Origin: a virus
Virus record (IMG/VR): IMGVR_UViG_3300042430_001927
Direction: 5' to 3' (one strand)
Length of the DNA stretch: 17,977 bases
Part shown: positions 1,585 to 3,427 of the stretch, in pieces
Position numbering within the stretch: position 1 is the first letter of the stretch
How the letters are laid out: each line of letters begins with the position of its first letter
Translations under genes and position numbers: made by a program
Notes under the pieces: model-generated
The model's input: the letters and a program-made list of their open reading frames with translations, nothing else
What the model was told of the DNA's origin: nothing
The model's database searches: none

Positions 1585-1675
1585 TTGAGGCCTCTCAACC
1601 CCATGGAAGGTGAAATTTTCAGCGGCTTACCTTCTATCCCGCCATTTGGCGATTATTTATATACATAGATATGAT

Positions 1676-2878
1676 ATGAAATTGCGATATCGCTACAGGA
1701 TTTATCCTACCCTGCAACAAGAACAACAGATGACGTCTGTGGGTGGTGCAGTTCGATTCCTATACAACCACTTTCTCAAGGTAAACATAGATCAATACAA
1801 CCAAGACAAAACATTTGTGTGGCAGTTTGACATGTGCAAACAGTTCACATCACTCAAGACCCAACACACTTGGTTGAAAGACACCTACAGTCAGGTGTTG
1901 CAGAGCAGCATCAAGGACCTAGATCAAGCACTCAAGAACATCAAGAAAACCGGTGCTGGGTTCCCCAAGTTCAAGAGCAAGTACACTACGCCAATAAGTT
2001 TCAGATATCAACAACATACATCAATTAGCACTGATGGCAAATATGCCCATCTACCAAAAATAGGTGCTATCAGAATCAAGCTGCACAGATCACTGCCCAG
2101 CAAATATACCGGTTGCACAATCACACAAACACCACGTGGTTGGTATGCAAGTTTTGTGGTTGATGTGGCAGAACTGCCATTGGTAGATCAAGTGCAGAAC
2201 CCAGTGGGAGTGGATGTCAACAGCCAATACACAGCATTATCAACTGGTGACCTGATTGCCAATCCACGACCACTCAAACAAAAACAAGTGAAAATTAAGT
2301 CACTACAACGCAAACTTGCCAAGAAACAAAAGGCAAGCAAGAACAGAACCAAAGCAAAATTAAAACTGGCACGAACTCATGATCTGGTTCGTTGCCAAAG
2401 ATTAAACCATATACACCAAATCAGTGCGAGAATAGCCAAATCGCATGACCTGGTGTCAGTTGAAACACTGAAAATTGAAGAGATGAGGAAGAAGAGCAAG
2501 CTAGCAGCCAAAGCTATTGCGGATGCAGGATGGGCCATGTTGGCTAACGCAATCGCCTACAAATTCCAACTAGCTGGTCATCACTTCACCAATATAAATC
2601 AGTGGCTACTCAGTAGCAAGACATGCAGCTCATGTGGTACCAAGAAATCATCACTGGATTTGAAGCAACGAGAATATCATTGTGAATCTTGTGGTGTTAC
2701 ACAGCATCGCGACATCAATGCAGCAGTGAATATCAAGAACTGGGGACTCCAACAATGGAACATAGATCATGCAAGGCAGGAACTGCCTCAAGCGCCTGTG
2801 GATGTGACTTGGGATATAATGGACAATTGGGGCCATGTATCTCAGTCACAATTGAAGCAGGAAGTCACTGCCCTTTAG
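1676..2878 (+). CDS. tnpB: TnpB, the OrfB-type RNA-guided RuvC nuclease of IS200/IS605-family elements. No tnpA is present.
   Basis: The N-terminus has YRYRIYPTLQQEQQ and GGAVRFLYNHFL, matching the canonical (A)YKFRLYPTxEQ and GxxRFVYN motifs. RuvC-I is at GVDVN, RuvC-II at VSVETLKIEEMRK, the zinc finger at CSSCG(x14)CESCG, and RuvC-III at HRDINAAVNI. All catalytic D/E/D residues are present. I set the start at the ATG at 1676 (MKLRYRYRIYPT) rather than the upstream extension in the ORF track. Confidence 0.85.
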   Translation: MKLRYRYRIYPTLQQEQQMTSVGGAVRFLYNHFLKVNIDQYNQDKTFVWQFDMCKQFTSLKTQHTWLKDTYSQVLQSSIKDLDQALKNIKKTGAGFPKFKSKYTTPISFRYQQHTSISTDGKYAHLPKIGAIRIKLHRSLPSKYTGCTITQTPRGWYASFVVDVAELPLVDQVQNPVGVDVNSQYTALSTGDLIANPRPLKQKQVKIKSLQRKLAKKQKASKNRTKAKLKLARTHDLVRCQRLNHIHQISARIAKSHDLVSVETLKIEEMRKKSKLAAKAIADAGWAMLANAIAYKFQLAGHHFTNINQWLLSSKTCSSCGTKKSSLDLKQREYHCESCGVTQHRDINAAVNIKNWGLQQWNIDHARQELPQAPVDVTWDIMDNWGHVSQSQLKQEVTAL

Positions 2879-2929
2879 GGCGTGGTAGTTCACATACATA
2901 TTCACAAGCTGTGTCAAACACTGGCAAAT

Positions 2930-3427
2930 TTATCCCAGCATGGCGATAGCTTTGGCAGCATCTGAATGGGAGAGGCCCACAGTGGGATCAGTTACAATGG
3001 CACGTGGTCCCAGGCTGGCAATGCCTGTGATATCGTCCACAGCCACCCAGTTTGTGATTTCTGGATGATCAGCCAACCACCTATGGATTTCATTTACTCT
3101 GTGGCTGCTCAACTTTCTGGGGGTCATGTAACTGCGTTCACTGGGATCTTCCCACTCAAAAACATGCTCAGTGCTGATACCATTGCGTTCCAGGCAACTG
3201 GTGATTTGGCTAAAACTATGGCCCATGGCCCAGCTGGTGCTCAGCACAATTTCTGTTTGTGTGGTGTTCAAAATGTGCATGAGGTTGCTCACGCACTGGT
3301 GATCAAATACCACTTTGTCCAGGTAATTGGCATGTGTGAGACCTTGATTGGCTTGTTCTTGTGCTAGGGGATCTGGCAGGAGAACTCCATCAAAATCCAA
3401 AAATAGTATTTTTGTCAACGGTCTCAT
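2930..3427 (-). CDS. Phosphatase of the HAD superfamily, possibly a nucleotidase.
   Basis: ILFLDFDGVL is HAD motif I (DxDGT/V). VLSTSW is motif II. The gene diverges from the dCMP deaminase gene. Confidence 0.55.
   Translation of the reverse strand: MRPLTKILFLDFDGVLLPDPLAQEQANQGLTHANYLDKVVFDHQCVSNLMHILNTTQTEIVLSTSWAMGHSFSQITSCLERNGISTEHVFEWEDPSERSYMTPRKLSSHRVNEIHRWLADHPEITNWVAVDDITGIASLGPRAIVTDPTVGLSHSDAAKAIAMLG

Follow-up and report, generated by a model that had tools for sequence, protein, structure and literature searches.

A stranded TnpB/omega-RNA module in freshwater phage genomes, probably acting as a fixed-locus RNA-guided homing nuclease

A freshwater tailed phage, represented here by IMG/VR record IMGVR_UViG_3300042430_001927 (a stretch of 17,977 nucleotides, referred to as the window), carries an intact tnpB gene between two minus-strand genes, the AdoMet decarboxylase gene speH and a HAD_SAK_2 phosphatase gene (HAD). 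The plus-strand tnpB lies inside the HAD–speH intergenic spacer in antisense orientation to both neighbours, an arrangement already described in an initial annotation of this DNA and upheld by Pfam calls on both flanks. The same annotation had proposed an intact, phage-encoded TnpB lacking the transposase gene tnpA, and Pfam and NCBIfam matches, the presence of the catalytic triad and zinc finger, and the viral nature of the genome all agree; viral origin is indicated by PHROG matches to tail-spike/fibre and homing endonuclease families. Features of the locus and their coordinates are collected in Table 1.

The longest plus-strand open reading frame (ORF) at the locus spans positions 1610–2878 and opens with a GTG, whereas the ATG at 1676 yields the family N-terminus MKLRYRYRIYPT. 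Three Pfam families exceed their cut-offs along the product, covering the N-terminal HTH/WED region (HTH_OrfB_IS605, PF12323, 7.8e-14), the RuvC-like OrfB_IS605 domain (PF01385, 7.9e-20) and the zinc-ribbon TNB domain (Cas12f1-like_TNB, PF07282, 1.5e-19), and the NCBIfam model guided_TnpB (NF040570) gives 250 bits (cut-off 100). The best NCBIfam model is IS200_TnpB, at 293 bits versus 164 bits for IS607_TnpB, and no serine recombinase was found near tnpB in the window or neighbouring contigs, ruling out an IS607-type TnpB/Fanzor identity. ISDra2 TnpB (PDB 8bf8) could be aligned over residues 6–358 (E=1.9e-45), and the RuvC triad D180/E263/D346, found in VGVD180VN, VSVE263TL and HRD346INAAVN, aligns with the ISDra2 motifs GVDVG, GTEHL and DRDENAA, while the zinc-finger cysteines C317/C320/C336/C339 are all present. 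By every sequence-based test applied the protein is a bona fide TnpB. Homologues occur in 409 phage records. No Y1 transposase was detected in the window or in approximately 30 kb of neighbouring contigs.

The limits of the element were established by comparison with IMG/VR relatives (L001–L007, 69–85% protein identity), truncated copies (L025–L028 and L034) and mini-elements, and similarity to these relatives spans from approximately 1657 to 2893. More than 12 independent insertions, some encoding TnpBs only 35% identical, are alike through the sequence ...GAAGCAGGAAG-hairpin-GTAGTTCAC and unrelated directly after it, and on this alignment the right-end terminus is at 2893, 15 nt past the stop codon. 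The initial annotation had extended the element into a downstream flank of about 50 nt and expected the guide just past 2930; this needs correction, as the predicted guide already ends at approximately 2909–2913. The terminal hairpin is preceded on its 5' side by the invariant GAAGCAGGAAG and followed on its 3' side by GTAGTTCAC (2885–2893), which overlaps the last two hairpin bases. Its stems differ wholly among relatives with pairing kept, as in CCACAGCCC/GGGCGTGG, CTGTTGGTC/GACCAACAG, CCCATTGGC/ACAATGGG and CCGCTACCC/GGGTAGCGG, and at least six unrelated stem sequences with retained pairing were found. A right-end signature of this kind (GAAGCAGGAAG, a variable hairpin with a TTTA loop, and GTAGTTCAC) is common to TnpB elements of many unrelated viral contigs (L091–L127).

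The right-end module also encodes a structured omega RNA of approximately 175 nt, overlapping the last ~160 nt of the ORF. A start near 2700 had been anticipated, close to the 2717–2719 indicated by covariation and by mini-elements, one of which (in L007, minus strand) keeps exactly the part corresponding to 2717–2896. The segment 2690–2913 (224 nt) folds better than 200 of 200 shuffled sequences (z = -3.3 for the minimum free energy), and RNAalifold applied to eight copies predicted 50 pairs, 11 of them compensatory and several inside the coding region. A covariance model built from this alignment (R1) has a sole match in the window, at 2700–2893 on the plus strand (207 bits), and also recognizes the 3' ends of TnpB genes at 33–40% amino-acid identity. 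Across 53 distinct sequences covariation upholds seven helices (Table 1): standard pairs occupy 90% of cells versus 35–39% when partners are slid by 1–3 columns, 42 of the 50 pairs have changed on both sides, and the covariation score is 0.233 versus at most 0.045 in the slid controls; this alignment was model-fitted so that its counts lean towards structure, but the margin is large. Consistently, synonymous divergence is lowered in the last ~57 codons (for example 0.06–0.13 versus 0.36–0.56 in close relatives). By every test applied to the sequences, the RNA is a bona fide omega RNA. The covariance-model search suggested at the outset was less rewarding when made against Rfam, which gave no match over the whole window at gathering thresholds. 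With E<=10 over 1400–3200 the only relevant match was Transposase-1 RNA (RF03014, 2641–2686, plus strand, 16.8 bits, E=3), overlying the zinc-finger coding region just 5' of the omega-RNA scaffold; with this E-value and a score far under the gathering score of 42.8, it was taken as noise. Rfam thus holds no model that detects the present omega RNA.

The predicted guide, ATACATATTCACAAGCTGTG, begins in the flank directly after the right-end terminus, with a length of 16–20 nt predicted by analogy with characterized TnpBs. Its first seven nucleotides coincide with the right copy of an ATACATA repeat, and within the window it matches only itself.

Table 1. Features of the tnpB locus (window coordinates).
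Feature	Position	Strand	Basis or remark
speH (AdoMet_dc, AdoMet decarboxylase)	1117-1584	-	Pfam
TTAC, candidate ancestral transposon-associated motif (TAM)/insertion site	1627-1630	+	putative; register ambiguous by ~5 nt
Degenerate left end, retaining TCCCGCC and GGCGATT..TTATATACATAGAT	1631-1675	+	MAFFT alignment
TTAT (TTTAT with 1656), TAM-like motif at left breakpoint	1657-1660	+	abuts 1233-bp polymorphism
Segment present in window, absent from L086-L090 and L142	1661-2893 (equivalently 1668-2900)	+	1233 bp, megablast
Left ATACATA copy	1661-1667	+	ATAAATA in family consensus and in diverged occupied lineage L082
tnpB coding sequence, intact, 400 aa	1676-2878	+	ATG start
Omega-RNA scaffold (right-end module)	~2717-2893	+	covariation, mini-element
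Omega-RNA helix H1	2719-2722/2770-2773	+	
Omega-RNA helix H2	2733-2736/2756-2759	+	
Omega-RNA helix H3	2741-2743/2749-2751	+	
Omega-RNA helix H4	2774-2779/2783-2788	+	
Omega-RNA helix H5	2795-2799/2857-2861	+	
Omega-RNA helix H6	2803-2824/2831-2851	+	
Omega-RNA helix H7	2864-2873/2878-2886	+	
Terminal hairpin (right-end DNA hairpin)	2864-2886	+	covarying stem
Predicted omega-RNA guide ATACATATTCACAAGCTGTG	2894 to ~2909-2913	+	flank directly after right-end terminus
HAD_SAK_2 phosphatase	2930-3427	-	Pfam

At the opposite end the window copy departs from its family. Relatives carry approximately 95 nt between flank and ATG, including a hairpin, in the layout TTAY followed by [C/G]TCCCGCC GCGGAAAG-CCAGG..loop..CCTGG-ATGGATAGC GGC... 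TTATATAAATAGAT..ATG, the flank preceding [C/G]TCCCGCC being NTTAC at six sites, TTTAT at two and TTGAC at one. Left-end and right-end stems vary together (in a second copy from the same phage, copy B, CTGTTGGC/GCCAACAG on the left and CTGTTGGTC/GACCAACAG on the right), as they should if they are the paired sites bound by TnpA in IS200/IS605 elements. The left side of the window copy reads TTAC CTTCTA TCCCGCC ATTT GGCGATTATTTATATACATAGATATGATATG, and its MAFFT alignment with five full left ends shows a single gap, ~40 nt long, that coincides exactly with the hairpin GCGGAAAGCCAGG..CCTGGATGGATAGC. On this alignment the left end survives as a remnant without its hairpin, keeping only a CGCC/GGCG mini-stem at 1642–1653. 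When the 91-nt spacer 1585–1675 was shuffled 200,000 times, the TTAY..TCCYGCC signature arose in 170 of the shuffles, a frequency that is indicative only, the pattern having been chosen post hoc. Another match to this signature, near 9965 on the minus strand, was judged a chance occurrence, all downstream left-end features being absent there.

The initial annotation had regarded the locus as a typical IS200/IS605-type insertion and suggested looking for hairpins at its ends. The right-end hairpin is indeed present, together with a conserved terminus and with several family copies at unrelated loci, as befits a mobile IS200/IS605 family; what is missing is a hairpin at the left end and an empty site free of scars, and most of 1585–1660 recurs in alleles without tnpB. 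Since the left-end hairpin is gone and neither the window nor its neighbourhood contains tnpA, TnpA-mediated transposition of the window copy is unlikely, and the term stranded TnpB/omega-RNA module describes the locus best. Copies of this left-end-less type were seen at the HAD–speH locus only.

Alleles without tnpB were located in public assemblies through exact neighbour proteins. While many contigs are identical to the window at this locus, in six independent assemblies (L086–L090 from Logan/ENA, and L142 from JGI) HAD is followed directly by speH. In megablast alignments with these contigs, window segments 1–1667 and 2894–5647 abut with a 7-nt overlap. The TnpB-less allele reads ...GGCGATTATTTAT ATACATA TTCACAAGCTGTG..., and the window allele ...GGCGATTATTTAT ATACATA GATATGATATG...(tnpB)...GTAGTTCAC ATACATA TTCACAAGCTGTG..., so that the polymorphic segment is limited on the left directly after TTAT (1660) and on the right at the right-end terminus, with the 7-bp ATACATA at both sides. 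Read in this register, the TnpB-less junction is ...GATTATTTAT/ATACATATTCACAAGC, that is, TTTAT/ATACATATTCACAAGC. The motif TTTAT therein directly abuts a 16/16 match to the guide, and the same 16–20 nt follow GTTCAC when the site is occupied. The trait is thus homing-like in its distribution, presence or absence at one locus with the predicted target (TTTAT plus 16/16) intact only in the six TnpB-less contigs. An exact scan of IMG/VR for the guide returned zero matches, and one of JGI metagenome contigs returned 17 chance matches and one TnpB-less allele, numbers of no use for allele frequencies.

The comparison with element-less relatives suggested by the initial annotation was therefore successful in finding a gene-less allele, but the site is not scarless. 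TnpB-less alleles retain 37 nt of left-end-like sequence (1631–1667), and no allele joining 1630 to 2894, as a scarless empty site would, was found among them. As they keep a left-end remnant they are not pristine target sites, and most probably represent secondary losses, as judged from sequence. Regarding them as virgin sites with a purely native 1585–1660 was considered and dropped, the retained flank aligning as a hairpin-deleted left end. Possible routes of loss include a microhomology deletion, perhaps initiated when TnpA nicked the intact right end, and aberrant excision via the internal TTAT; it is also possible that the TnpB-less allele is the recipient state of a later re-acquisition. 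Two other sources were rejected. TnpB self-cleavage followed by end joining should cut 15–21 nt into the flank, whereas the breakpoint lies at the right-end terminus, and a derivation of TTCAC-ATACATA-TTCAC by unequal recombination with a mini-remnant would require the joining of non-homologous sequences. TnpB-less and window alleles are identical for ~170 nt to the left and ~900 nt to the right of the site and diverge beyond, indicating that the gain or loss was recent. The window flanks carry single-nucleotide polymorphisms (SNPs) of the TnpB-less type up to both junctions, with variants typical of L082 at 1242–1429 only, and the left 7-mer of the window contains C1664, where L082 and the family consensus have A. 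Homing without co-conversion, a recent deletion and general mosaicism could each account for this SNP pattern.

One may ask whether this is simply an ordinary non-autonomous IS200/IS605 element with complete ends, mobilized in trans by TnpA, whose TnpB serves only for retention after excision. Relatives elsewhere do possess full left and right hairpins, many independent insertions and mini-elements resembling palindrome-associated transposable elements (PATEs), and the breakpoints found here, at the right-end terminus and after TTAT, resemble a TnpA cut. Nevertheless such an interpretation is improbable: the hairpin bound by Y1 transposases is absent from the left end, tnpA is missing from the window and neighbouring contigs, the 37 nt kept by the TnpB-less allele are not what a scarless donor joint of the whole element would leave, and the exact right-end motif occurs in only one of ~185,000 species genomes. 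This single match among prokaryotic (GTDB) genomes is a 4.8-kb contig of a Patescibacteria metagenome-assembled genome (L128), whereas a dozen IMG/VR contigs contain the motif, and the subfamily therefore looks largely phage-borne. Its copies occur with differing flanks in L001, L002, L005, L006 and L007, and as copy B in L003/L004. PATE-like deletion derivatives, which lack an intact tnpB and consist of a left-end hairpin and a few codons fused to a partial or complete omega-RNA/right-end module, were observed in L005 (12230–12484, minus strand), L007 (992–1385, minus strand), L034 (~11454–11588, minus strand) and L025–L028 (5959–6423).

Other alleles of the locus have decayed, and a homologous copy participates in their history. 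The L082 lineage, 94% identical overall, has a stop at codon 16; L073 and L077 contain a frameshift imported through gene conversion from copy B; and L080 is an A/B chimera with a stop 16 codons early, copy A being the element at the HAD–speH locus. Copy B (L003, 1–9069, and L004, 5909–7220; IMGVR_UViG_3300034121_001426 and _3300042319_001418) is an 85% identical second element elsewhere in the same phage, flanked by a pectate-lyase-like gene and a DUF6745 gene. Both of its hairpins are full, its tnpB is a frameshifted pseudogene (116 + 296 aa), and its guide has no target in the window. Arrays of ~69-bp repeats, encoding MORN-like peptide repeats (DGPAVIYADGSQEWYVDGQLHRL), lie on both sides of copy B (L004 3571–4256 and 7359–7624). 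L075 joins HAD, copy A and the pectate-lyase flank, and L077/L080 join speH, an A/B hybrid and the DUF6745 flank; these correspond to the two reciprocal junctions that an A/B inversion should produce, but could also be assembly chimeras. Crossovers in the hybrids fall at different points, ~1686–1800 and ~2200. The paralogue-bearing contigs are IMG/VR uncultivated viral genomes; a 7-kb stretch of them is 100% identical to a 95-kb metagenome contig (Ga0453161_0000069), which has the speH flank in common with the window.

These decayed alleles invite a less dramatic explanation, in which the window copy is a decaying, inactive relic not yet disabled, and the polymorphism reflects a neutral microhomology deletion combined with ordinary phage recombination. 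Nonsense mutations, frameshifts and truncations in sister alleles, the pseudogene status of copy B, the 7-bp ATACATA direct repeat flanking the deleted segment and a promoter scan that found none are all in line with it. A relic is nonetheless hard to reconcile with an intact 400-aa protein identical across 21 contigs, with a ratio of nonsynonymous to synonymous substitutions (dN/dS) of 0.18 versus relatives at ~74% identity, a sign of purifying selection, and with a strongly conserved, covarying omega RNA. Neither would a random microhomology deletion be expected to break exactly at the right-end terminus, or guide, TTTAT and target to be placed exactly as a nuclease requires. Inactivity is therefore considered unlikely, although it retains more credit than trans-mobilization. 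The initial annotation had named lack of an omega-RNA-like structure and a fixed, non-mobile, inactivated gene as observations that would speak against a functional mobile nuclease, and the outcome is divided, since the copy looks non-mobile and sister lineages are inactivated, while the omega RNA is present and the window copy intact.

The interpretation considered probable is that of a tnpB-only IS200/IS605 derivative which lost its left-end hairpin and is now a fixed-locus RNA-guided homing nuclease among phage genomes. In ISGst elements, TnpB and a right-end omega RNA with a flank-derived guide were shown to cut the TAM-plus-flank donor joint left without the element, upon which recombination with an occupied copy restores it (Meers et al. 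2023, PMC10055086); papers citing Karvelis et al. 2021 credit TnpB/omega-RNA cleavage to that study as well. TTTAT itself is the experimentally determined TAM of ISGst2 TnpB2 (PMC10055086). By analogy we infer that the window TnpB is able to cleave sister genomes that lack it and to be copied into those genomes. The element would first have inserted 3' of a TTAY motif through ordinary TnpA transposition, and a later loss of the left-end hairpin would have precluded its excision and mobilization as a transposon. What remained would be a fixed-locus nuclease guided by the first ~16–20 nt of the right flank (ATACATATTCACAAGC...). In the occupied allele this target sequence follows ...GTTCAC and would be protected, whereas in the TnpB-less allele it follows TTTAT, and such genomes would be cut by TnpB in co-infections. 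With the occupied genome as template, recombinational repair could then copy the element back, a donor-joint or homing reaction between phage genomes, and repair synthesis primed from the TnpB-less recipient end would leave the TnpB-less-type SNPs of the window, including C1664. Decayed and loss alleles in sister lineages would fit the invade–decay–loss cycle of a selfish homing element.

Several points weigh against this probable homing role. Cleavage and expression of the window TnpB are predicted from sequence, scans for promoters and terminators around the element found no more of them than in shuffled sequence and no convincing promoter, and only 15 nt of element sequence precede the ATG. 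The TAM is deduced from nine left-end flanks only, mostly TTAC and not TTAT. Any drive must be incomplete, as TnpB-less alleles persist in several samples, and the nuclease must be dispensable to the phage, as an inactivated tnpB is tolerated in several lineages. Moreover, a recent precise deletion from a window-type genome explains the SNP mosaic equally well, and general phage recombination without a TnpB cut could move the element between backgrounds. A stronger version is put forward only tentatively: after shedding its left end, the TnpB/omega-RNA pair would survive among lytic phages solely as a homing/exclusion nuclease that is RNA-guided and independent of TnpA; were it true, intact, decayed, lost and window-type alleles would offer a snapshot of a drive cycle.

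Immobilization of an element with an intact nuclease, in an antisense position between two auxiliary metabolic genes, might alternatively point to domestication, with TnpB serving the phage as an RNA-guided factor that excludes competitors or regulates HAD/speH by antisense transcription or DNA binding, particularly as some TnpB derivatives encoded by phages (TldR) have known regulatory roles directed at the host. This is very improbable, considering that the RuvC triad is intact, unlike that of TldR, that within the window the guide matches only its own flank, and that close relatives have lost or disrupted the gene with no visible change in its neighbours.

The genomic surroundings of the module provide further observations. 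Window positions 1–8000 gave zero megablast matches to GenBank phages, so that no named GenBank phage is close, and the HAD neighbour has no close IMG/VR relative (best identity <=34%). Auxiliary metabolic genes cluster at 1117–4427 (speH, HAD phosphatase, dCMP deaminase and Dps/ferritin), and just beyond the window contigs L067/L077 encode Fe-SOD, an Fe-S A-type carrier, PurM, CTP synthase and a formyltransferase; a PTH2-like gene lies at 10942–11409. A further candidate for a selfish nuclease gene within the 18 kb is the 190-aa ORF at 13056–13628 (plus strand), which matches PHROG 655 'homing endonuclease' (1.2e-42) and has a weak HNH motif. The 1460-aa tail-fibre-like gene at 5126–9508 (plus strand) combines collagen repeats, a Peptidase_S74 chaperone domain and strong PHROG tail-spike matches, and contains an array (5992–7873) of 36.9 tandem copies of a 51-bp unit; the length of its product varies among otherwise near-identical contigs (1460, 1307, 876 and 1670 aa). 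On the minus strand, 13949–16519 encodes an 856-aa protein with a Major Vault Protein shoulder (3.7e-19) and Vault_3 repeat domains, unusual among phage proteins, for which PHROG and NCBIfam gave no matches.

To our knowledge, TnpB genes are common in phage genomes and no role has been shown for them there. Phage-borne TnpB, elements with tnpB alone and the mechanism of homing were all known before, and the element described here is of the ordinary selfish kind, caught in an informative state. Current concepts are left unchanged, and the value of the locus is that of a clean test case: an intact nuclease, a supported guide RNA, a defined guide, sister genomes carrying TAM plus target, decayed alleles and a recombining paralogue form a natural matched set with which to test if, without transposition, TnpB can drive its own inheritance from virus to virus. 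The locus also illustrates how a phage genome can be rearranged by recombination between TnpB copies.

Among characterized systems, ISDra2 TnpB of Deinococcus radiodurans (PDB 8bf8/8exa/8h1j) has the same domain order, D/E/D triad and CxxC..CxxC zinc ribbon, and likewise a guide RNA spanning the tnpB 3' end and right end with its guide drawn from the flank, a likeness at the level of layout. Whereas ISDra2 is complete, with tnpA and both of its ends, the window copy has neither tnpA nor a left-end hairpin. TldR resembles the present system as a phage-borne TnpB-family protein with a guide RNA outside a mobile transposon, but it has lost its RuvC residues and targets host promoters; the intact triad found here rules out identity with TldR. 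Parallels also exist with tnpB-only elements of the ISGst2 type (PMC10055086), in which a TAM-like TTTAT abuts the guide match in the element-less allele, PATE-like mini-elements occur in the family, and the predicted action is homing via a double-strand break and recombination. The empty site of ISGst2-type elements is a scarless product of TnpA excision in a bacterial chromosome, whereas here a left-end remnant stays with its hairpin gone, and the arena is a phage population in which co-infection takes the place of sister chromosomes. Finally, free-standing HNH and GIY-YIG homing endonucleases of T4-like phages recognize their targets through the protein, in contrast to the flank-fixed guide RNA predicted here, and the resemblance to them rests on distribution: a dispensable intergenic nuclease gene, present or absent among close relatives, decayed in some lineages, and with the allele lacking the gene as its predicted target.

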